NCBI RefSeq assembly: GCF_040564635.1
Contig: NZ_CP159837.1
Span: forward strand, 99,801 to 163,800
DNA from: Planktothricoides raciborskii GIHE-MW2
GTDB taxonomy: Bacteria > Cyanobacteriota > Cyanobacteriia > Cyanobacteriales > Laspinemataceae
Reading direction: 5' to 3'
Length of the DNA stretch: 64,000 nt
Shown: positions 10,480-50,815 of the stretch, piece after piece
Layout of the letters: every line of letters begins with the position of its first letter
Position numbering within the stretch: position 1 is the first letter of the stretch
Notes under the pieces: generated by a model
Told to the model about the DNA's origin: nothing
The model's database searches: none
The model's input: the letters and a program-made list of their open reading frames with translations, nothing else
Made by a program: the position numbers and the translations under genes

Positions 10480-10936
10480 GATTCTCCTAGAAATGGCACA
10501 TTAGCCCTTGTGAACTGAGTAAGCATTGCCAGTCAATTCCTTTATTCGAGGATAATCCGCCATTATCCGTATTCTGGTCTAGATTTAATTTTGTTGTTGG
10601 TTGTTGGTTGTTGGGTAGGGATTCTTTGTTGGTTGGGGAACGGGGAACAGTTATCGGGGAACGGGGAAAGTGAAAAGTTAAAAGTGAAAAGTGATGCATT
10701 GAAAAGTCGTAGGGGCTTTCTGGCCATATAGCCTGACGGATTATGCTTCGCAAGGACGCCCGTACAAGTGAAAAGTTAAAAGTGAAAATTCGTAGGGGCT
10801 TTCTGGCCATATAGCCTGACGGATTATGCTTCGCAAGGAAGCCCGTACAAAAGAAGTATCACTATTCACTATCTACTATTGACTATTAATTATTAACTAT
10901 TTATTATTTAATATTCGTTATTTACTATTTATTATT

Positions 10937-11139
10937 CACTATTCCCTGTTCCCTGTTCCCTGTTCCCTGTTCCCTATTCCCTGTTCCCTATTCCCTGTTC
11001 CCTATTCCCTGTTCCCTGTTCCCTGTTCCCTATTCCCTGTTCCCTATTCCCTGTTCCCTATTCCCTGTTCCCTGTTCCCTATTCCCTGTTCCCTATTCCC
11101 TGTTCCCTATTCCCTGTTCCCTGTTCCCTATTCCCTGTT
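10937..11139. repeat. Heptanucleotide array (TTCCCTG/TTCCCTA)n of about 28 copies, STRR-like
   Basis: The array is read directly. The complementary heptamer GGGAACR appears about 300 bp upstream at 10620-10650. A ~62-bp direct duplication at 10670-10860 lies between the two. Confidence 0.9.
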
Positions 11140-28183: not shown

Positions 28184-28357
28184 GATGTTTTAGCCAAGAT
28201 GTTTTAGCCAAGATGTCTTAGCCAAGATGTCTTAGCCAAGATGTCTTAGCCAAGATGTCTTAGCCAAGATGTCTTAGCCAAGATGTCTTAGCCAAGATGT
28301 CTTAGCCAAGATGTTTTAGCCAAGATGTTTTAGCCAAGATGTTTTAGCCAAGATGTT
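28184..28357. repeat. 13-mer tandem repeat (GCCAAGATGTYTTA) x about 13, abutting or overlapping the truncated 3' end of tnpB
   Basis: The repeat is read directly. Confidence 0.9.
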
Positions 28358-31315: not shown

Positions 31316-34030
31316 TCTCCCCAATCCCAGGTAGGTTTTCTTTTACTACTATCAACATAGAGGTAGCAACCCGCCCTCCCTGGCAGATAGGTAAAAAAAA
31401 TGTAAAATTTTAATAAATTTAATAACAATTTTTTAATAATATTGCCGCTCGCCAAAAACGAGGTTAAATTGATACTAATACCTGAAGTATCTACCCCAGT
31501 ACCATGAACCCACGTCTAGGATTAATCGCTTTATTCACTTTATTAACCAGTTTAACCCTAACAATTCCCTCTCCACTCCTATTGGGGAAAAAATTTGAGA
31601 TGGGTAATGGAGTATTCGCCCAAACAGTTACAGAACGAAAAGCCGAAGCAGACCGATTATTAAATCAGGGAAGACAACAATATACAACTAGCCAATACCA
31701 AGCCGCAATTCAGTCTTTAGAAACTGCATTAAACATTTTCCGTGAAATCGGCGATCGCAATGAAGAAGGAAATGCTCTCATAGGTTTGGGTAATGCTTAC
31801 AATAGCTTAGGACAATATCAAAAAGCAGCAGAAGAGTTTTATCAACAGTCTTTAACTATTAAACGTGAAATCGGCGATCGCAATGGAGAAGGAAATGCTC
31901 TCATAGGTTTGGGTCTTGCTTACAGTGACTTAGGACAATATCAAAAAGCAATTGAGTTTTATCAACAGTCTTTAACCATTGCCCGTGAAATCGGCGATCG
32001 CAATGGAGAAGGAACTGCTCTCTATAATTTGGGTCTTGCTTTGTTTAAATTGAAGAATTTTCCTGAACATGAAAAATATCTGTTTTCTAGTCTCGAAGTT
32101 AAGGAATCTCTGCGACAAGGAATTCAAGACGACCTCGATAAAGTATCTCTTTCCGACACTCAACGCAATTCCTATAATCTGCTTCAACAAGTTTTAATTG
32201 CTCAAAATAAAACTGAGCCAGCTTTAGAAGTTTCTGAACGAGGTCGGGGGAGAGCGTTAGTCTAGTTATTAACTCAACGATTCAACCCCAATTCAGAACC
32301 CTTTTCTCCGGTTGTTTCTTTAGCCCAACTCTAAGCAATTGCTCGACAACAAAATGCAACAATTGTTCAATATTCTAGGATTTCCGATGAATTTTCACGT
32401 AAACAACAAAACCTAGAATCAGAATTATATATTTGGGTAATTAAGCCCACAGGAGAAGTTGAGTTTAGACAAGCCGATCTTAAACCCCTTTGGCAAGAAC
32501 AAAACACCTCTCTAGGTCATCTCATTTTCGCAGCGCGTTGCTTTGGTAATGATGCCTGTAGAAGTGATTTTATTACCGCTTCACCTAGTTCTAATGTAAC
32601 TCGTTCTAATTTGACAAGCAGTCCTCTATTTAATTCCCAAGCTTATGCTCTAAGAGAAGCACAGAATATCGATATTAATCCGCATCAATATCGAGAGTTA
32701 AAAAAACTCCATAAACTGTTAATTAAACCCATTGAAGATTTATTACCGACTAACCCAGATGAACGAGTGATTTTTGTTCCCACAGATGCTTTATTTTATC
32801 TACCTTTTGCTGCTTTGGTAGATGAAGAAGGAAAATTCTTAATTGAAAAACATACAATTTTAATGTCTCCTGCCATTACTGTGTTAGAAACAAGTCACAA
32901 AAAACGGCAAAATTTATCTTCTTCTGCCCAAGATATTGTGATTGTGGGTAATCCGCAAATGCCGAAACTTGCACCGAGTCCAGGGGAAGAACCTAAACCG
33001 TTAGCCCCCCTTCACTATGCTGAAAAAGAAGCGATTGAGATTGCTAAAATGTTCAATACTTCGGCTTTAATTGGAGCCAATGCAACAGAATCAACGGTAG
33101 TTGAACGCTTGAAAACTGCTCGAATTATTCATTTTGCTACTCACGGATTTGTTGATAATATTCAACCTTTAAATAGTGGCGTAGCGTTAACTCCTGGGGG
33201 TTCGGAGGATGGATTATTAACGGCGGATGAAATTTTTGACTTAAAATTAAATGCAGAATTAGTGGTTTTAAGTGCCTGTGACACTGGACTTGGACAGTTA
33301 ACCGGGGATGGGATGATTGGGTTATCTCGTTCGTTTTTGAATGCAGGAGTTCCGAGTTTAGTGATGTCGTTATGGGCTGTAGATGATCGAACAACCTCTC
33401 AATTGATGGTACAATTTTATCAGAACTTACAGACGACACCCAACAAAGCCCAAGCGTTACGACAAGCGATGTTAACGATGAAAAATCAATATCCTGATCC
33501 TTATTATTGGGCGGCGTTTACTTTAATAGGTGAAGCAGAATAGCAGAGAATGAAGATCGGTAAAGGGGGTAGATAAATCCCCGGGGGTTAAAACCCCTTT
33601 AACCGACTGTAGGGGTCAACGGCCGTTGACCCCTACGGGGATTTTAATCCCCGCAATCGTCGGTTAATTGCGGGGGTACATAAATCCCCGGGGGTTAAAA
33701 CCCCTTTAACCGACTGTAGGGGTCAACGGCCGTTGACCCCTACGGGGATTTTAATCCCCGCAATCGTCGGTTAATTGCGGGGGTACATAAATCCCCGGGG
33801 GTTAAAACCCCTTTAACCGCCTGTAGGGGTCAACGGCCGTTGACCCCTACGGGGATTTTAATCCCCGCAATCGTCGGTTAATTGCGGGGGTACATAAATC
33901 CCCGGGGGTTAAAACCCCTTTAACCGCCTGTAGGGGTCAACGGCCGTTGACCCCTACGGGGATTTTAATCCCCGCAATCGTCGGTTAATTGCGGGGGTAC
34001 ATAAATCCCCGGGGGTTAAAACCCCCGGCT
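31312..34030. repeat. Right arm of the inverted duplication (promoter region, CHAT-TPR copy B, palindromic tandem units)
   Basis: See the left arm. Copy B has about 4.5 of the 108-bp palindromic units versus about 2.3 on the left, and fewer TPR units. Confidence 0.85.
31504..33543 (+). pseudogene. TPR+CHAT protein copy B, interrupted by two in-frame stop codons
   Basis: ORFs 31504-32265 and 32611-33543 are collinear with copy A. In the same frame, ALV*LLTQ and AQL*AIARQ replace ALVELLTQ and AQIQAIARQ. Confidence 0.75.
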
Positions 34031-34432
34031 AATAGCGCAAGTCGGTTAAAACCGACTCTGGATTATTTTGAAATTGGTAATATTATTTACAAAAATTCAT
34101 ACAACAGTAGGGGAGCAATGCTTGCGCCCAAATAGACCAGTACATAAATCGCCGGGGGTTAAAACCCCCGGCTAATAGCGCAAGTCGGTTAAAACCGACT
34201 CTGGATTATTTTGAAATTGGTAATATTATTTACAAAAATTCATACAACAGTAGGGGAGCAATGCTTGCGCCCAAATAGACCTGGGGTTAAAACCCCCGGC
34301 TAATAGCGCAAGTCGGTTAAAACCGACTCTGGATTATTTTGAAATTGGTAATATTTTTGAAATTGGTAATATTATTTACAAAAATTCATACAACAGTAGG
34401 GGAGCAATGCTTGCGCCCAAATAGACCTGGGA
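34008..34432. repeat. Three tandem ~125-bp units; a single inverted copy is at 835-975
   Basis: The unit ggctaatagcgcaagtcggttaaaaccgactctggattattttgaaattggtaatattatttacaaaaattcatacaacagtaggggagcaatgcttgcgcccaaatagacc occurs three times. Confidence 0.85.
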
Positions 34433-36742: not shown

Positions 36743-39700
36743 ATGATGATAGAAGATGATGAACTCCGCACTACCTTTCAGTTTGCCAGTGAAGAACATT
36801 TGCAGAAATTAGATGAAGGGTTGTTATATTTAGAAAAACATCCCGAAGACCAGGAAAAGCTGGCAGAAATGATGCGAGAAGCTCATAGTCTAAAAGGGGA
36901 TGCCGGGATGTTGGGGGTGAAAGATGTGGCAACTTTAGCCCACCAATGGGAGCATTTGTTGGGGACATTAAAGGATGGCGAAGCTTCTTTGCGCGAGGGG
37001 ATTTACGATCGCCTCTATTCTGGTTTAGACGCTATTCGTAAATTAGTGCAGGAAGCGATTACTGGAGAACCGAGTGGAGTTAATACCTTTTATGCCTTGG
37101 CTGAATTAATGGGAGCGAAATCTCACTCGGAATCCCCAGAAAGCCGCGCTAACCTGGAAGCATCATCGTCGGTGCCATCATCTGTCCCACCATCTGTCAG
37201 TGATGAAGTACCACCACCAGCCCCAATCCCATCAGAAACGTCGCCTGTCAGCCCGGAAGTACCAGAAATTATTCCCCCACCTGTGAGCCTTGAACCCGGA
37301 AGTACCAGTTCTCTGCTGATTGATGATGAAGAACTGCGGATGACTTTCAAATTTGCCAGTGAAGATCATCTACAAAAGTTAGATGAAGGTTTGCTGTATT
37401 TAGAGACCCATCCCCAAAACCAGGAAAAATTGGCGGAAATGCTCCGAGAAGCCCATAGTCTCAAAGGGGATGCGGGGATGTTGGGGGTGAAAGATGTGGC
37501 GACTTTAGCCCATGAATGGGAGCATTTGTTAGGCAGTTTAAAGGAAGAAACGACTTTCCTAACCGGGGAATTGTGCGATCGCCTCTATTTCGGCTTAAAC
37601 GCCATCCGTCAACTGGTGCATGAAGCAATTACCGGGGAACCCAGTGGGATTAATGTGCCGGATGTCCTCGCTCAGTTAACCGCTCAAGTGGCAACGGGCA
37701 ACGGGCAAGTGGCAACGGGCAACAGGCAAGTGGCAGAGGAGATGAGGAGCAGAGGAGATGAGGAGCTTTCCCTCCCCGGCTCCCCTGCACCACCGCTCCC
37801 CGGCTTCTCCGGCTCCCCGGCAGCCGATGGCGGCGATGGCGGTTCCCCCGTTCCCAGTTCCCTGGACAACAACATTGCCGACTCATCATATGAGAGGAAA
37901 ACCTCGGACTTAGAACCCTTCACCAGCACACAGTCGAGCACATCGAGCAGAACCGGGGCTTATCGGATTGAGTCCATTCGGGTGGAAACGCGAAATCTGG
38001 ATGAACTGATGACTCAAGCGGGTGAATTGACCGTGACCAAGAGTCGGATTAACCATCGACTCGCGGAAGTAGAAGAAATTGTCAGCCTGTGGGAAGAGTG
38101 GAACCGCGATGTCTTTGTCAATCGCTTCTGTATTGATGAAGTAGTCAAAGGCAATCGTAATGGGTCTGTGGAGCAGTTAAAAAACTTTCATCATCGCACA
38201 GAAGACCGTCTGCAAAAGTTCGGTGAGTTGATTAGCAGTCTAAGAAGTTCTATTTATGAAGATACGGCGCGATTGGATCTGATCGTAGATGAGCTAGAAG
38301 AAGGAATTCGGACTTTGCGGCTGTTACCAATGTCCACGATAGTGAATTTATTCCCCCGCATGGTAAGGGAACTAGCTAAAGAGTACGGTAAACAAGTAAA
38401 CCTGATTTTAGAAGGAGCCGAAACCAGAGCCGATAAGCTGATTCTAGAAGAAATGAAAGACCCCTTGATTCATATTATTCGGAATGCGGTGGATCATGGG
38501 ATTGAAACCCCAAAAGAACGGATACAGCAGGGCAAACCGGAGACGGCAACGATTCGGATTAAATGCTACCAAACCACTAACAATATTATTATTGAAGTGA
38601 GTGATGATGGTCAGGGATTGGATCTTGAAAAAATTAAGCAAACAGCCCTGAAACGCGGCATTTGTCGTCCTGATGAACTGGCGAATATGACCACCAATCA
38701 GATTCAAGCATTAATTTTTGCCCCCGGTTTTTCTACCCGCACCTTTGTCACGGAAGTTTCCGGCAGAGGTGTGGGTTTGGATGTGGTGCGGACGAATGTA
38801 GAACGACTCAAAGGCGCGATCGCGGTTCACTCCACTCCGGGCAAAGGTTGCACCTTACGACTCCAATTAGGCACCACCTTAGCCACCGCCCATGTTTTGT
38901 TGGTGCAGGTGGATCAACTGGTCTATGCTTTGCCCGTCGAAGCCGTTCAAATGGCCAAGTTTATCTCCAAAGATGAGATTTTTTCTTTGGAAGGGCGGAA
39001 AACCATGATTATAGAAGGGCAACCTATTTCCGTGGCCAGATTGAGCGATTTACTGCCGATTAATTCAAAGATTCCAGAACATCTGCGAATCAGTCGGAAT
39101 CATACTAGGTTTGAGACAAAAAGTCATCAAGAAGACAACACCAATTCTCAGGAGCATAAAATACCTTGTATTATTCTACAAATCGGCGAAGAACGATTAG
39201 GATTATTAGTAGATGCCCTGATCGATGAGCAAGATGTAGTCCTGAAACCTCAAAGTAAACTGCTCAAGCGAGTCCGCAATATTTCCGGTGCGACAATATT
39301 AGGTACTGGGGAAGTTTGTATGGTACTAAACCCCCAAGACTTGATCAAATCTGTCCGCCAACAAGCTATTATTATTAGCGATGCTCAACCTCTGGAAGAG
39401 AAAATTACCGAACAACGCAAAAAGGTCATTTTGTTGGTAGAAGATTCTATCGCTACCCGCACCCAAGAAAAGCGGATTCTCCAAAGTGCTGGCTATGAAG
39501 TGGTGACAGCAGTGGATGGTTTGGATGGTTGGAATAAGCTGAAAACTCGTCAATTTGATGCGGTGGTTTCCGATATTCAAATGCCTAATCTTGATGGGCT
39601 AGGACTCACAACAAAAATTCGTCAACATAAAGAATATAGTGAGTTGCCGATTATTTTGGTGACATCTCTGGCCAAAGATGATGATAAGCGACGCGGGGCA

Positions 39701-39781
39701 GAAGCGGGGGCAAATGCCTATATTACTAAGAGTAGTTTTAATCAACAAATGCTCTTAGAAACTATCGAAAGATTAATTTAA
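36743..39781 (+). CDS. CheA-type hybrid histidine kinase with two tandem Hpt domains, HATPase, CheW-like domain and C-terminal receiver (PilL/HmpE/TaxAY-like)
   Basis: Two nearly identical Hpt units are present (LAEMMREAHSLKGDAGMLGVKDVATLAHQWEHLLG and LAEMLREAHSLKGDAGMLGVKDVATLAHEWEHLLG). The HATPase has HIIRNAVDHG..GRGVGLDVVR. The C-terminal REC has ILLVEDSIATR..DIQMPNLDG..ITKS. Confidence 0.9.
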   Translation: MMIEDDELRTTFQFASEEHLQKLDEGLLYLEKHPEDQEKLAEMMREAHSLKGDAGMLGVKDVATLAHQWEHLLGTLKDGEASLREGIYDRLYSGLDAIRKLVQEAITGEPSGVNTFYALAELMGAKSHSESPESRANLEASSSVPSSVPPSVSDEVPPPAPIPSETSPVSPEVPEIIPPPVSLEPGSTSSLLIDDEELRMTFKFASEDHLQKLDEGLLYLETHPQNQEKLAEMLREAHSLKGDAGMLGVKDVATLAHEWEHLLGSLKEETTFLTGELCDRLYFGLNAIRQLVHEAITGEPSGINVPDVLAQLTAQVATGNGQVATGNRQVAEEMRSRGDEELSLPGSPAPPLPGFSGSPAADGGDGGSPVPSSLDNNIADSSYERKTSDLEPFTSTQSSTSSRTGAYRIESIRVETRNLDELMTQAGELTVTKSRINHRLAEVEEIVSLWEEWNRDVFVNRFCIDEVVKGNRNGSVEQLKNFHHRTEDRLQKFGELISSLRSSIYEDTARLDLIVDELEEGIRTLRLLPMSTIVNLFPRMVRELAKEYGKQVNLILEGAETRADKLILEEMKDPLIHIIRNAVDHGIETPKERIQQGKPETATIRIKCYQTTNNIIIEVSDDGQGLDLEKIKQTALKRGICRPDELANMTTNQIQALIFAPGFSTRTFVTEVSGRGVGLDVVRTNVERLKGAIAVHSTPGKGCTLRLQLGTTLATAHVLLVQVDQLVYALPVEAVQMAKFISKDEIFSLEGRKTMIIEGQPISVARLSDLLPINSKIPEHLRISRNHTRFETKSHQEDNTNSQEHKIPCIILQIGEERLGLLVDALIDEQDVVLKPQSKLLKRVRNISGATILGTGEVCMVLNPQDLIKSVRQQAIIISDAQPLEEKITEQRKKVILLVEDSIATRTQEKRILQSAGYEVVTAVDGLDGWNKLKTRQFDAVVSDIQMPNLDGLGLTTKIRQHKEYSELPIILVTSLAKDDDKRRGAEAGANAYITKSSFNQQMLLETIERLI

Positions 39782-39785
39782 GCAA

Positions 39786-39822
39786 CCTAAAAACCGGGTT
39801 TCTTGCCGAAACCCGGTTTTGG
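39786..39822 (+). terminator. Hairpin terminator after the CheA hybrid; founding member of the AAACCGGGTTT palindrome family
   Basis: AAAACCGGGTTTCTTGCCGAAACCCGGTTTTGG has an 11-bp perfect stem, a 7-nt loop and a short U-run. Confidence 0.6.
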
Positions 39823-39834
39823 CGATGATAGGCG

Positions 39835-41805
39835 ATGATAATTTATTTTTGTTTTGGTGTTATGGTTGGTGTACATTGGTTGGTAAACATGGTTGGTAAA
39901 CTTTGCCCTCTAAAATTTTGCACATTTGGCGCGTTCGCGATAGCGGTGCGGAGCGCGATCGCGATAGGAATTTTTTTCAGAATTATTTGTCTGGGTAGGC
40001 GAGAGTTTTGGTACGATGAAGTGCTATCTTTACTTTTGAGTAATGGCCAAAAAATTGCCTACCAAACCCCAGGAGATTTGCCGGTAAAATTGGCAGACTA
40101 TTCTGCTTTGTTAAGCTTACCTCGTACCTCTGGGGTGAGCGACTTTCTGACTAATTTGGTGAATTTACTCAAAGGAATTGCCGGAGGTGAACCTCATCCC
40201 CCACTATTTTATCTGAGTCAACATTTTTGGCTGTATCTGTTTGGCAATAGCGAGGCAGGAATGCGGAGTTTGGGGGTGGTTCTCAGTATTGCCGCGATCG
40301 CTGCTGCCTATTTTTTGGGCAAACTACTTTTGGGACATCGTGGCGGACTTTTACTCGCCGCTTTATTGGCCATAAATCCATTTTATCTGTTTCATTCCCT
40401 AAATTTGCGAATGTATGGCCCCCTAGTTCTTTGGGTGACATTGACTACCTTATCTCTGCTACAACTGATTCGCCTAGAAATAAATGCCCCAGAAATAAAT
40501 TCCCCAGAAATAAATTCCCCAGAAATAAATTCCCCAGAAATAAATTCCCCAGAAATAAATTCCCCAGAAATAAATTCCCCAGAAATAAATGCCCTAGAAA
40601 TTAATTCATCTAAACTCCTGTGGACATTATTACTAATCGGTTCCGTAACTGCGGGTTGTCTCACTTTTTACTTATTTGCCTATTGGATGATTACCCTGGG
40701 AGTCGTGGTACTTTTTTTAGATCGGCAACATTGGTGGCAACATGGATTACGGTTAATCGCCGGAGTTTTACTCACAATTCCTTGGGCACTTTGGGGCACC
40801 TTGCAGCAACTTAGAAATGCTGATTTTGGCCGATTTAATGCCAGTAATGGATTTTTCGCGAGTATGCTGCAACATTTACAAGATTTAGCCAGCACTCTGG
40901 GGATTCATTTACTAATCGGCGATTGGGCTACTAGCCTACCGAATTCTATGCAGGCGATCGCGGGTTTTCTGGTTATGGGATTACTCACCGCAGGGATAAT
41001 CTATGGGTGGCAGAATCCTCATAAACCGGGTTTCTTGAAGAAACCCGGTTTCTCGGAATCATTCATCAAGTCTCCGCGCCGTCTCCTGATATTAGGCTTT
41101 TTATTGAGTCTTTTTCCCCTATTAATAGCCTTAGCAGTGGATATAATCACCGGCAAATTTACCCTAGGCTTTGGGTGGGGCAGAAGCATGATTTTTATTC
41201 TTCCGGGCTGCTTACTATTACTCACTATTTTAATCATGCAATTAATCAGGGTATCAAACAAAATATCCGCTTCTACCCCTGAATCCCCTCAGCCGCGCCC
41301 ATTAAATCCCCGTTGGCCTCAAATATTCGCCGTAATTCTTCTCTTATTATATTTAGGAATTAACGTGGGAGATTTTACCCTTCGACCCCGCTGGATGTTT
41401 CATCAAATTGCCGATATTCTTCAGGGCGAACCGAATAGTCCCACCTTAATTGCCATGAACTCAAAAGCCTGGGGTCATGTCATGCGGTTAGCGTATTATA
41501 TTCCCGCAAACTTGCCGGTCATGCTATTAGCGGAACCCGCCCCAGAATTAGCGATATCCTTAGAAAAAAGCTTAGAAAAAAGCCAGGAAAAAACCTCTAG
41601 TCAATATCAGCGAATTATCTGGATAGATAGTCATACCCCCATTTGGTCAAATCCAACCACAGAAACCGAAAAAGAAGCTATCACAAAAGTTTTAGAATCT
41701 CAATTTCAATTAGAAAAAACTTGGCAAGTTTCTGGCACCATGAATAGTGATGAATTTACGCTCAAACTTTATCATCTATCTGCTCAATTGATAATTAATA
41801 ATTGA
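39835..41805 (+). CDS. GT-C superfamily membrane glycosyltransferase (PMT_2/ArnT-like, GT39/GT83-like); the start codon is uncertain
   Basis: It has more than 10 predicted TM segments. The first-loop motif is REFWYDEVLS. It contains an internal PEINS x8 repeat and an in-frame hairpin element. Met at 39889 (MVGKL..) is a possible alternative start. Confidence 0.65.
   Translation: MIIYFCFGVMVGVHWLVNMVGKLCPLKFCTFGAFAIAVRSAIAIGIFFRIICLGRREFWYDEVLSLLLSNGQKIAYQTPGDLPVKLADYSALLSLPRTSGVSDFLTNLVNLLKGIAGGEPHPPLFYLSQHFWLYLFGNSEAGMRSLGVVLSIAAIAAAYFLGKLLLGHRGGLLLAALLAINPFYLFHSLNLRMYGPLVLWVTLTTLSLLQLIRLEINAPEINSPEINSPEINSPEINSPEINSPEINSPEINALEINSSKLLWTLLLIGSVTAGCLTFYLFAYWMITLGVVVLFLDRQHWWQHGLRLIAGVLLTIPWALWGTLQQLRNADFGRFNASNGFFASMLQHLQDLASTLGIHLLIGDWATSLPNSMQAIAGFLVMGLLTAGIIYGWQNPHKPGFLKKPGFSESFIKSPRRLLILGFLLSLFPLLIALAVDIITGKFTLGFGWGRSMIFILPGCLLLLTILIMQLIRVSNKISASTPESPQPRPLNPRWPQIFAVILLLLYLGINVGDFTLRPRWMFHQIADILQGEPNSPTLIAMNSKAWGHVMRLAYYIPANLPVMLLAEPAPELAISLEKSLEKSQEKTSSQYQRIIWIDSHTPIWSNPTTETEKEAITKVLESQFQLEKTWQVSGTMNSDEFTLKLYHLSAQLIINN
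40478..40606 (+). repeat. In-frame 15-bp tandem repeat x8 inside the CDS, encoding (PEINS)8
   Basis: CCCCAGAAATAAATT x8 translates to APEINSPEINSPEINSPEIN... in the frame of ORF 39835-41805. Confidence 0.9.
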
Positions 41806-41855
41806 TAATTATTAATTATCAATTATTAATTATCAATTATTAATTATCAGAGCAA

Positions 41856-42767
41856 CTATCGATCGCTCATATTTGCTAAACGCAAATACAGTTGAGGATC
41901 TTCTGCCACCCAACCGAGATCGGAATTTGATCGCACCTCAAAATGCAAATGGGGTTCGTGAACATCCGGGCTTCCCGTGGTGCCTACAGTGCCAATTTGT
42001 TGTCCCTTTTTCACCTGTTGACCTGGTTGCACCGACATTAACTCCAAATGGGCATAACGAGTTTGCTTACCGCTGGCATGGTTAATCACCACCAAATTGC
42101 CATAAGCCCCACGGGAGTCAGCAAAAGCCACCACCCCATCCCCCACAGTCAACACGGGAGTACCCACTGCTGCTTGGAGGTCAACGCCACTGTGAAAAGC
42201 CACTTCACTGCTGGTCGGTCGTAAGCGCCAGCCATAGCCCAGTAATTCTACTGACTGCCCTGGTAAGGGGAAACCGCCCAAAACTCCTTGTCGCACTACT
42301 TGACTAGCAGATGCTGCGGAATTAATCGGCGACCAATTGACTCCAGGAACAAATACCACTCGCGGGTTAGCTTGACAACCATTCACCTCAAACAAAACAT
42401 CGGGCCGCAAGTTATACTTTTGGGCTACGTCTTGCCAAGTTTCACCTGCCGGAACCTCGACGCGGATGCCGTTGTAGGGGGGAATCAAAATCTCTGCACC
42501 GACCGGCGCATTCCCTTGCTGTAATATGGGATTCATTCCCATCAGGGTGGCAGGAATCAGATTATATTCTGCGGCAATAGTTTCCAGGGTTTCACCGGCA
42601 GCAATGCGATGCTTTTGCAGCCGGGATAAGGCCGGTAACGGACAACCTGATTCCTGTGAAATTTGCCGATTTTCTGTTTGGGCAATTTGATTGGCCGTGG
42701 CATTTAACCCGGGCATAAGTAAATATATAACTGTAGAGAGCAAACACAGCCTCAACGGTGAATTCAT
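41856..42767 (-). CDS. LysM-domain M23 family metallopeptidase
   Basis: It has a signal peptide, two LysM motifs (HRIAAGETLETIAAEYNL, VPAGETWQDVAQKYNL) and an M23 core (HSGVDLQAAVGTPV...GNLVVINHASGKQTRYAHL...HLHFEV). Confidence 0.85.
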   Translation of the reverse strand: MNSPLRLCLLSTVIYLLMPGLNATANQIAQTENRQISQESGCPLPALSRLQKHRIAAGETLETIAAEYNLIPATLMGMNPILQQGNAPVGAEILIPPYNGIRVEVPAGETWQDVAQKYNLRPDVLFEVNGCQANPRVVFVPGVNWSPINSAASASQVVRQGVLGGFPLPGQSVELLGYGWRLRPTSSEVAFHSGVDLQAAVGTPVLTVGDGVVAFADSRGAYGNLVVINHASGKQTRYAHLELMSVQPGQQVKKGQQIGTVGTTGSPDVHEPHLHFEVRSNSDLGWVAEDPQLYLRLANMSDR

Positions 42768-43183
42768 ATTAATAATAGATGTGAGAAATTTCTAAGTTAT
42801 TAGTTATTAGTTATTGGTTATTTAACAAACAACTTGCCAACAAATAACTAATAACTAATAACAATTTATCTGTGCGATCGCCTGAAGCAACCATACCTCA
42901 ATGCTACCCAACTGACTTCAGCGATCGCCACTCCATACCCGGACAGGGGGAGCGGAGGGGCTGGGGTGCAGGGGAGCGGGGGAGAATTTTTGCCCTCACC
43001 CCCCCTGCCCCTCATCCCCCCTGCTCCTTATCCCCGTTCCCCGCTCCCTGATAACTGTTCCCCTTTCCCCAACCACCAACCAACAACAACTAAATTTTAT
43101 TTCTGGCAGGGATTAACCTACGGCGATCGCTCATATTACAATATGTAAAGAAAGTAAAAAAATTCAGTAGGAAAGGGCAGAGA

Positions 43184-44620
43184 ATGCGAGTTGCGATCGC
43201 CGGTGCGGGACTAGCAGGTATGGCCACCGCAATAGACTTAGTAGACGCGGGACACGAAGTAGAAATCTTTGAATCCCGTCCGTTTGTCGGTGGCAAAGTA
43301 GGCAGTTGGGTAGACCCCGACGGCAATCATATTGAAATGGGGTTGCACGTCTTTTTTGGCTGCTACTACAACCTCTTCGACTTAATGAACAAAGTGGGGG
43401 CAGGAAATAACCTCCGACTCAAAGAGCATACCCACACCTTTGTCAATCACGGGGGCAAAATCGGCGAATTAGATTTTCGGTTTTTTACCGGCGCCCCGTT
43501 CAATGGGTTAAAAGCCTTCTTCACCACCTCTCAGCTATCAGTCCAGGATAAACTCCAAAATGCGATCGCCCTGGGAACCAGCCCGATCGTCCGTGGATTA
43601 GTGGACTTCGACGGCGCCATGAGAAATATCCGCGACCTAGATAAAATCAGCTTTGCGGACTGGTTCCGCAAACATGGGGGCAGCGACGGCAGCATCAAAA
43701 GAATGTGGAACCCGATCGCCTACGCCTTGGGGTTCATCGACTGTGAAAACATCTCAGCCCGGTGTATGCTGACCATCTTCCAATTCTTTGCGGTCAAAAC
43801 GGAAGCCTCAGTCCTGCGAATGCTAGAAGGTTCCCCCCATGAATACTTGCATAAACCCATCGTCAAGTATCTCGAAGACCGGGGCACCAAAATCCACACC
43901 CGACGGCAAGTCCGGCAAATCTTATTTGAAGATCGCCCCATTACAACCGTCACAGGTCTACGGGTTGCCAACGGGGAAAGCGAAGAAACCATCACCGCTG
44001 ACGCCTATCTTTTCGCCTGTGATATCCCCGGCATTCAGAAAGTGTTGCCCCAGGAATGGCGGAAATGGCCGGAATTTGACAATATCTATAAACTCGAAGC
44101 GGTCCCCGTCGCCACCGTACAACTGCGCTTTGATGGCTGGGTGACAGAACTCCATGACGCGGAAAAACGCAAACAATTACAGGAAGCAGCAGGATTAGAT
44201 AATCTGCTTTATACCCCAGACGCGGACTTTTCTTGTTTTGCAGATTTAGCCTTAACCTCTCCCGCTGATTACTATCGCCAGGGACAAGGTTCTCTAATGC
44301 AGTTGGTGTTAACTCCAGGAGATCCATTTATTAAACAGAGTAACCAGGAGATCGCCGACCATGTACTCAAACAAGTGCGGGACTTATTCCCCTCAGCCCG
44401 CGACCTCAACATGACCTGGTATAGTGTGGTCAAACTGGCCCAATCCCTCTATCGGGAAGCCCCTGGCATGGATCCTTATCGTCCCGCCCAAAAAACCCCC
44501 ATTCCCAACTTCTTCCTCGCGGGTGCCTATACCCAACAGGATTATATCGACAGTATGGAAGGGGCGACCATTTCTGGACGACAAGCGGCCAAAGTGATTC
44601 TGGAATTTGCCGGTAAATAG
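43184..44620 (+). CDS. pds: 15-cis-phytoene desaturase (plant/cyanobacterial type)
   Basis: The N-terminus is [57 protein letters not shown] is characteristic of Pds/CrtP. Confidence 0.9.
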
Positions 44621-50699: not shown

Positions 50700-50815
50700 G
50701 GAGGTATTTTTTGCGGGTATTTTTTGCGGGTATTTTTTGCGGGTATTTTTTGCGGGTATTTTTTGCGGGTATTTTTTGCGGGTATTTTTTGCGGGTATTT
50801 TTTGCGGGTATTTTT
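50700..50815. repeat. 13-mer tandem repeat (GGGTATTTTTTGC) x9
   Basis: The repeat is read directly. Confidence 0.9.

Follow-up and report, generated by a model that had tools for sequence, protein, structure and literature searches.

We analyzed a 64,000-nt stretch of the genome of the cyanobacterium Planktothricoides raciborskii GIHE-MW2 (contig NZ_CP159837.1, positions 99,801 to 163,800; hereafter the window), in which a membrane glycosyltransferase gene carries two kinds of repeat without losing its reading frame: a 15-bp tandem repeat encoding a (PEINS)n tract, and a 33-nt palindromic element, or hairpin, encoding KPGFLKKPGF. The locus is probably one functional gene of the GT-C class in which two unrelated kinds of repeat DNA are lodged in two structurally unconstrained loops. 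It represents no new biological system; this is selfish or slippery DNA tolerated within a working gene. Feature coordinates are collected in Table 1.

The open reading frame (ORF) at 39835-41805 on the plus strand is open throughout (656 aa). Pfam places PMT_2 (PF13231) in residues 121-212 of this ORF only, at 42 bits versus a cut-off of 26.1 (E 1.5e-10), and the match stops right at the 15-bp repeat. The protein collection holds 554 homologs, the best 120 of which are 540-620-aa proteins of filamentous cyanobacteria, and the name “glycosyltransferase family 39” is attached to many homologs and to the NCBI cluster. Alignments of 26 and of 120 sequences keep their collinearity over the full length, and both inserts are flanked on either side by invariant residues; examples are REFWYDE towards the N-terminal end, GFGWGR, and NSxAWGH towards the C-terminal end. 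In the first loop after transmembrane helix 1 (TM1), residues R38, E39, W41, Y42, D43 and E44 (638-aa numbering) are invariant in 120 sequences; from general knowledge of GT-C enzymes, we take this acidic motif to be catalytic. The AlphaFold2 (AF2) model based on the 120-sequence alignment forms one compact GT-C fold (pLDDT 88.1, pTM 0.89) and was used instead of a model built on only 26 sequences, which reached a pLDDT of 58.8 and was unfit for fold search. Foldseek against the PDB returned GT-C enzymes at all of ranks 1-21 (STT3, AglB, PglB, ALG9, ALG12 and AftA), with a best E of 6e-7 and TM-scores of only 0.35-0.45. A PDB sequence search with the family profile gave no matches, and kinship to the solved GT-C enzymes is therefore remote. 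Together, the Pfam match, the collinear orthologs and the modeled structure with its Foldseek neighbors indicate that this is a single GT-C glycosyltransferase gene of the GT39/PMT_2 group, with a predicted multi-helix membrane fold, and the GT-C assignment made in the first-pass annotation is retained.

The same evidence bears on an alternative raised at that stage, namely that the ORF is really two genes with a terminator between them. A strong hairpin of a terminator-associated family does lie inside the ORF, and some gene callers produce 372-aa fragments; these calls, however, begin upstream of the hairpin at MITLG and hence are not split there. More than 100 species have single collinear proteins of 540-620 aa that run across the site and share invariant residues before and after it, the frame is intact in every strain examined and in the sister species, the model is a single compact fold, and use of the next downstream Met would cost conserved helices. 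We therefore rejected the two-gene explanation, which is extremely improbable.

Three in-frame ATGs are available to the gene (39835, 39862 and 39889), and the first of these had initially been taken as the start. The N-termini of 25 orthologs align in the column of ATG 39889, M19 of the 656-aa ORF is invariant, and the GenBank models, at 638 aa, agree with this ATG; these observations favor 39889 as the most likely true start, giving a 638-aa product. The RefSeq model of 594 aa begins at an internal GTG, loses TM1 and the invariant REFWYDE motif, and looks like a mis-annotation. The 5' end of the gene (39821-39901) consists of short tandem repeats, GGCGATGATA x2 and ATGGTTGGTAAAC x3, which bear all three in-frame ATGs. 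Because the 13-bp repeat contains in-frame ATGs, the start codon itself lies within repeat DNA.

Tandem Repeats Finder (TRF) reports the (PEINS)n tract at 40476-40607, with period 15, 8.8 copies, 95% matches and a score of 236. The 15-bp repeat noticed in the first pass stands, although not at eight copies: in codon phase the tract comprises nine units, reading LEINA, PEINS six times, PEINA and LEINS, with six of the nine being perfect copies of CCAGAAATAAATTCC. The prediction that such a tract would vary in length was borne out when units were counted in four P. raciborskii DNA versions of the gene. Against the nine units of the window as reference, L003 (GCA_030153465.1) has 8 units and one substitution elsewhere in the gene; of two JGI metagenome versions, L001 has 3 units and no substitutions elsewhere in the gene, and L127 has 13 units, with 19 substitutions over 6.1 kb of which a handful fall within the gene. 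The named strains FACHB-1370, GIHE-MW2 and SR001 have nine units with one A/S difference, and the 3-unit protein is found on three contigs. The tract thus combines perfect tandem units with a copy number that is polymorphic between close strains, the properties of a slipped-strand variable repeat. Sister species (~77% aa identity) keep three degenerate units, LEINS-PKINS-AEIN and LEINS-PEINS-PQINS, and the unit is therefore old and its expansion recent. Three diverged 15-bp units would already have been present in the ancestor common with the sister species. Homogenization of one unit would have followed in P. raciborskii, where this unit would have gone on expanding and contracting, most plausibly via replication slippage. 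Since 15 is a multiple of 3, only the length of the loop changes, by five residues per step.

The loop that holds the tract ranges from ~10 to >60 residues across orthologs, with separate duplications in other lineages. The AF2 model shows the tract as coil, bounded by helices 176-199 and 232-259 and with a pLDDT of 58-68; residues 200-231, together with the loop of the second insert, have the lowest pLDDT values of the model. The loop is acidic (8 D/E, 1 K/R), and it is predicted to be extracytoplasmic because of this composition and of the helix count from the conserved first loop. An adaptive contingency-type locus, whose length tunes activity, substrate access or periplasmic interactions, might be suspected from the four length alleles among near-identical strains and from the position of the tract directly after the sole PMT_2-matched segment. 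We consider this improbable: changes that stay in frame cannot switch the gene on and off, the length and sequence of the loop vary strongly across all orthologs, the model shows the loop as disordered, and with 109 TRF rows in 64 kb a period-15 repeat in a tolerant loop is expected of this genome. The tract reads as a near-neutral coding minisatellite varying by slippage, that is, an ordinary coding variable-number tandem repeat (VNTR). The 3' end of the gene also meets repeat DNA. An AT-rich repeat overlaps the stop and occupies the spacer up to a convergent M23 peptidase gene (41856-42767, minus strand); the last 10 codons run into this repeat, and sister species end at ..LYH. It varies by strain, with one unit fewer in L127 and a different palindrome center in L001 and L003, differences that lead to the LIINN and LIIDN tails.

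The second insert, the hairpin, encodes KPGFLKKPGF in frame, as first described. The pattern AAACCGGGTTTC-N5-GAAACCCGGTTT has exactly two matches in the window, 39791-39819 and 41023-41051, and none in 100 shuffles. The coding copy has two perfectly complementary 14-nt arms 1 nt apart and as RNA folds at -23.4 kcal/mol (z = -5.5), with 13 bp in the stem and 3 nt in the loop; the 11-bp stem given for it earlier was an underestimate. The other match lies in the spacer behind a gene for a CheA-like hybrid kinase. It had been said to differ in the loop only, and indeed the 12+12 nt of the arms are identical and the difference comes down to two loop bases (TTGAA versus TTGCC). The extents first assigned to the two copies, 41024-41056 and 39786-39822, were slightly off and are corrected in Table 1. 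The spacer copy folds at -20.4 kcal/mol on the plus strand and -22.8 kcal/mol on the minus strand, is identical in three conspecific loci, and has a flanking A-run and T-run, its four T pairing with the A-run. A covariance model, R1, built solely from copies in other genomes, scores the coding copy as its best match in the window (52.4 bits, E 2e-12), ahead of the spacer copy (38.6 bits, E 2e-8). The resemblance claimed for an element at about 52563-52602 also holds, as R1 scores it as a diverged member (27.7 bits, E 3e-5; fold at -18.2 kcal/mol). Across the 64-kb window, R1 found nothing beyond these three members, the next best match having an E of 0.9. A 2566-aa ORF (52674-60374, minus strand) ends 69 nt from the third hairpin.

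Within the modeled protein, the coding copy lies in coil, at residues 376-395 (pLDDT about 57), with helices 352-375 and 396-421 on either side. Both inserts therefore fall in low-confidence coil loops between transmembrane helices, which answers the topology check proposed in the first-pass annotation. The hairpin loop is basic (6 K/R versus 1 D/E) and, by helix parity from the C-terminal domain, is predicted to be cytoplasmic. The stem of the coding copy is followed by CUCGGAAU, with no free U-run.

Table 1. Glycosyltransferase gene and repeat features, in window positions
Feature	Position	Strand	Basis or remarks
GT39/PMT_2-family membrane glycosyltransferase gene (predicted GT-C fold)	39889..41805	+	ORF, Pfam, ortholog alignment, AF2, Foldseek
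Coding 15-bp tandem repeat, 9 units	40474..40608	+	TRF; residues 196-240 of the 638-aa protein
In-frame 33-nt palindromic element, 11 codons (..H KPGFLKKPGF S..)	41021..41053	+	Arms 41023-41036 / 41038-41051
Intergenic hairpin-family member, presumed terminator	39790..39820	.	9 nt past the stop of the CheA-like hybrid kinase ORF (36743-39781)
Diverged third hairpin-family member	52562..52599	.	Between convergent ORFs 51611-52531 (+) and 52674-60374 (-)
13-bp tandem repeat ATGGTTGGTAAAC x3	39862..39901	+	TRF; contains two in-frame ATGs
AT-rich 7/14-bp tandem repeat and palindrome	41786..41849	.	Inverted repeat with 26-nt arms, 100% complementary; TRF

To place the hairpin in a wider context, one genome per species (185,579 species) was scanned for the two arms separated by a 1-31-nt spacer. 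At least 120 matching stretches were found, where the chance expectation of the pattern over 596 Gb is ~0.5. Among the matches listed, to which the counts below also refer, most belong to Oscillatoriales and Nostocales (Microcoleus, Tychonema, Oscillatoria, Phormidium, Planktothrix, Arthrospira, Lyngbya, Scytonema, Stigonema and others), and a minority to Chloroflexi, Planctomycetes, Vecturithrix, one Bacteroidetes and one Patescibacteria genome. A gap-free alignment of 72 distinct copies with a 5-nt spacer yields the 33-nt consensus AGAAACCCGGTTTCTTnAAGAAACCGGGTTTCT. Conservation ends sharply outside these 33 nt; the element ends AG...CT, and its flanks are not conserved. The outermost variable pair covaries (G-C in 52 copies, A-T in 10, T-A in 3 and C-G in 1), and the arrangement of the arm centers is skewed 63:9 (p = 4e-11), a bias that favors copying from a master sequence over convergence of terminators. 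All three window copies are of the minority arm-center type.

The hairpins shun coding DNA: the median longest open frame spanning them is 66 codons, versus 342 at random positions of the same loci. Stop codons are favored, with 27% of the hairpins lying <=30 nt after the stop of an ORF of >=150 aa versus 6% of random intergenic sites (~4-fold), and there is no enrichment before start codons in the same loci. The genome scan, this enrichment and R1 together uphold the proposal that the coding hairpin is an in-frame copy of a dispersed family otherwise found after genes. Rfam gave no matches over the whole window at gathering thresholds and, at permissive thresholds over 39700-41900, only chance snoRNA/miRNA matches with an E of about 0.2; a full-text literature search for the hairpin string in DNA and RNA spellings returned unrelated primers only. 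A scan of IMG/VR for the hairpin gave no matches and thus no sign of phage carriage, and a metagenome scan for the locus-specific hairpin likewise gave no matches and no further population alleles.

The hairpin also occurs within larger structures. In several Oscillatoriales it forms the apex of a ~100-nt palindromic element, TATAGCGGTTTTCAGTTGGATGAAGTACGCCCCAG-hairpin-CTCAGTACCTCACTAATATGAAAACCGCTATA (L057 5940-5984, L091, L104, L106, L118 and two sites in L123; in opposite orientation in L024 and L045), which could be a MITE-like element (miniature inverted-repeat transposable element) or a structured RNA. Genomes of Microcoleus, Oscillatoria and Tychonema contain tandem arrays of 83-86-bp units, each with two hairpin arms 17-25 nt apart (L031 6346-6556, L048 5752-5978, L080 5002-5626, L090 5170-5383, L093 6172-6645 and L100 3223-3444); CRISPR was ruled out for these, as the spacers are repeated too. 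The same 12+12-nt arms are present in metagenome-assembled genomes labeled Bacteroidetes, Vecturithrix/UASB270, Anaerolineae/Chloroflexi, Planctomycetes and Patescibacteria (L018, L026, L030, L035, L036, L049, L052, L059, L061, L066, L067, L097, L099, L101-L103, L110 and L117), which may reflect horizontal spread, convergence or mis-binning. The Gemmataceae copies are a subtype of their own with a 7-nt CAAAGCA loop.

A second in-frame case was found in Aerosakkonema sp. BLCC-F183 (L020 3005-3057), where two tandem hairpins are read in a frame different from that of the window gene (..SETRFFGKTGFLSHSETRFLQETGFLS..). The host ORF exceeds 1100 codons and has Peptidase_C14 (caspase), nSTAND1 and WD40 domains. 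The hairpins form a clean 29-residue insertion directly before the DQFEE Walker B block of the nSTAND1 NTPase, and this insertion is missing in 11 of the 11 homologs aligned. In-frame residence therefore recurs, though rarely, with about 2 convincing in-gene cases among 89 short-loop copies. Long open frames over the hairpins of seven further loci (L025, L030, L035, L036, L061, L066 and L074) were rejected as high-GC spurious frames, 5' leaders, or frames next to N-runs.

Among the best 120 orthologs of the glycosyltransferase, KPGF/KPGL peptides at the hairpin loop are limited to four (P0001-P0004) and absent from 116. More distant orthologs are ~17 residues shorter at this loop, and P0005-P0013 have unrelated sequence of similar length. 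Thus, the ortholog comparison called for in the first pass does not show the two inserts as ancient conserved sequence: tract length varies, KPGF is mostly missing, and similar hairpins occur elsewhere. Two sister-species loci show what has become of the coding copy outside P. raciborskii. L004 is laid out like the window, with TGG CAA AAT CCT CAT (WQNPH), an arm, a short spacer and an arm; its first arm has decayed, differing at 5 of 15 positions, and its second arm, TAAACCCGGTTTA, is still self-complementary. In L002, two perfect arms lie 14 nt apart as a result of a 27-bp direct duplication, and both arm centers are swapped relative to the window, G-C to C-G, with pairing kept. Identity at 4-fold sites between the window and the species of L002 and L004 is 0.66-0.68, and the rest of the hairpin loop is unalignable; that perfect arms persist despite this divergence points to maintenance at the nucleotide level. 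Judged from these altered versions at the same codon position, the coding insertion is not recent. Within the species, the coding hairpin changes only at the loop center and at a stem-lengthening flank base: of 19 substitutions between L127 and the window in 6.1 kb, two lie inside it, T41022G extending the stem to 16 pairs and G41037C turning the unpaired center to its complement, as palindrome inversion would yield. The spacer copy after the CheA-like gene is confined to P. raciborskii and is therefore younger than the coding copy; in an empty-site comparison of the CheA-GT spacer, the sister-species spacers were unalignable.

These observations suggest the following course of events. The KPGFLKKPGF segment is a complete 33-nt copy of a REP-like (repetitive extragenic palindromic) hairpin family, AGAAACCCGGTTTCTTnAAGAAACCGGGTTTCT, whose members downstream of stop codons presumably act as terminator or 3'-end-stabilizing hairpins. 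One copy would have entered the basic, predicted-cytoplasmic loop before Planktothricoides and its sister lineage diverged. It would be tolerated in the gene because 33 nt is exactly 11 codons, the frame used is open, and no free U-run follows the stem; for want of such a run the coding copy should not terminate efficiently, and transcription would read through. Palindromy may then have been kept by selection on structure, or by palindrome-homogenizing template switching or inversion.

Alternatively, the intragenic hairpin could be a selected regulatory device: an attenuator, or a site of RNase processing or of ribosome pausing, by which expression is tuned or a truncated N-terminal product is made. 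The great stability of the stem, the palindromy held across species at the 4-fold identity given above with a compensatory arm-center swap, the polymorphisms that leave or lengthen the stem, and the terminator-like gathering of family members after stop codons are all in keeping with this. We nevertheless find it unlikely, as CUCGGAAU provides no free U-run after the stem, L004 has one decayed arm yet keeps the gene, and 116 of 120 orthologs do without the hairpin; moreover, selection can be mimicked by palindrome-correcting mutation. The hairpin might instead be of local origin, with no mobile unit: duplication and the correction of quasi-palindromes would have built it within a repeat-prone loop, and its likeness to the spacer terminator would be due to gene conversion or copying over 1.2 kb. 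The 27-bp direct duplication in L002 does make a second arm, each arm by itself is a near-palindrome, all three window copies share the minority arm-center type, and the older coding copy could have given rise to the P. raciborskii-only spacer copy. However, the coding copy fits the consensus of other genera at all 33 positions, including the TTnAA loop, and outscores the spacer copy; another genus has the element in-frame too, in a gene unrelated to this one; and the 63:9 skew indicates a propagating family. A local origin is accordingly about as doubtful as a regulatory device.

Several points weigh against the reading of one functional gene with two tolerated repeats. None of the close relatives examined offers an empty site, and the difference to more distant orthologs is ~17 residues rather than a clean 11, so that the boundaries of the insertion cannot be drawn. 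The count of copies in the host covers the 64-kb window, with three family members. Short-read metagenome assembly, the source of some of the unit-number alleles, can collapse repeats, and the membrane sides of both loops rest on helix counting and charge bias. A scan of 38800-43200 for consensus terminators with a stem and a T-run called neither hairpin; the terminator role of the spacer copy is presumed, and both it and read-through inside the gene are things we infer.

The hairpin is best compared with known dispersed palindromic repeats, and by analogy it appears to belong with them, resembling Rickettsia palindromic elements (RPEs) and the BRE repeats of Bordetella in behavior and REP sequences in size, symmetry and position. 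RPEs are 100-150 bp long and specific to Rickettsia, and many are intragenic. The first-pass annotation was reminded of them, and the likeness stands as far as behavior goes, as here too a dispersed palindrome lies in-frame where the protein bears extra residues, in unrelated genes. The present element is not a member of the RPE family, however, being 33 nt long, cyanobacterial, unrelated in sequence and overwhelmingly intergenic. RPEs are described as dispersed palindromes in-frame in functional protein genes (Ogata et al. 2000, via PMC3184786, PMC3733652). The same review material has the Bordetella BRE repeats (Hot et al. 2011, via PMC3184786) inside about 9 protein genes as well as between genes; a small repeat that is both intragenic and intergenic is the point in common, and the BRE repeats, compared by review text only, differ in phylum and sequence. 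With REP and REP-like stem-loops and REPINs (PMC3733652, PMC3116915), the family shares a short (20-40 bp) dispersed palindrome that is mainly extragenic, often just 3' of genes, and sometimes arrayed; it differs in having no GTAG/CGTC terminal tag of the Di Nocera superfamilies (PMC3733652) and in the intragenic copy here. The label of terminator first given to the hairpin is presumptive: neither of the two copies scanned, spacer and coding, fits the consensus of a G+C-rich stem followed by a T-run, and what comes after the coding copy is CTCGG. Nor is it a MITE (70-300 bp, terminal inverted repeats, target-site duplication), as it measures 33 nt and no direct repeat flanks it.

Two further kinds of repeat are closer in habitat or in mechanism. 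The small dispersed repeats (SDRs) of Nostocaceae are reportedly 21-27 nt long. Like the hairpin, they are tiny cyanobacterial repeat modules that can lie within other repeats; the present family differs in being 33 nt long and commonest in Oscillatoriales, and the two are set apart by descriptions of SDRs, not by sequences. According to PMC5861425, SDRs have not been found outside Nostocaceae; their description goes back to Elhai et al. 2008 (via PMC4390886, PMC5861425). The (PEINS)n tract, for its part, resembles slipped-strand coding repeats and short tandemly repeated repetitive (STRR) sequences in its perfect head-to-tail units, strain-variable number and repeat-rich genome; its 15-bp unit, a multiple of 3, changes protein length and makes no on/off switch. 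STRRs are classically heptamers in non-coding DNA.

The window is repeat-rich in general. Long, perfect tandem arrays include 63 bp x4.0 (63202-63453), 14 bp x12.4 (28184-28356), 13 bp x8.7 (50703-50815) and a heptamer/14-mer x15-29 (10933-11139). At 975-1221 and 33565-34355 there are 107-bp and 143-bp tandem repeats of perfect palindromes (GTAGGGGTCAACGG/CCGTTGACCCCTAC, GGGGTTTTAACCCC and GGGGATTAAAATCCCC), the first of which, GTAGGGGTCAACGG/CCGTTGACCCCTAC, looks like a GTAG-tagged REP as in PMC3733652. In the CheA-like hybrid kinase (36743-39781), an N-terminal Hpt-like module of about 190 aa is present twice, and the gene has in-frame repeats of its own, e.g. 21 bp x2.4 at 37685-37735 encoding QVATGNG.

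In-frame palindromic repeats are a textbook feature of Rickettsia and poorly documented elsewhere, and a smaller hairpin family, common to many bloom- and mat-forming filamentous cyanobacteria, here does likewise at least twice. A bolder interpretation, which we put forward tentatively and hold to be possible rather than probable, is that AGAAACCCGGTTTCTTnAAGAAACCGGGTTTCT represents an undescribed, actively propagating REP-like module of filamentous cyanobacteria: an RPE-like colonist of loops, admitted there by its 11-codon length and stop-free frames, that nests in larger palindromes and 83-86-bp arrays, perfects itself by inversion or template switching, and may serve as a transcriptional or translational brake in genes. 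For annotation, KPGF, ETGF and RNRVS peptides are signatures of a DNA hairpin, not protein motifs. The 15-bp tract can serve directly as a VNTR marker in typing Planktothricoides strains, and the locus as a whole provides a dated example, common to species at about 0.67 4-fold identity, of the persistence of a perfect palindrome in coding DNA.

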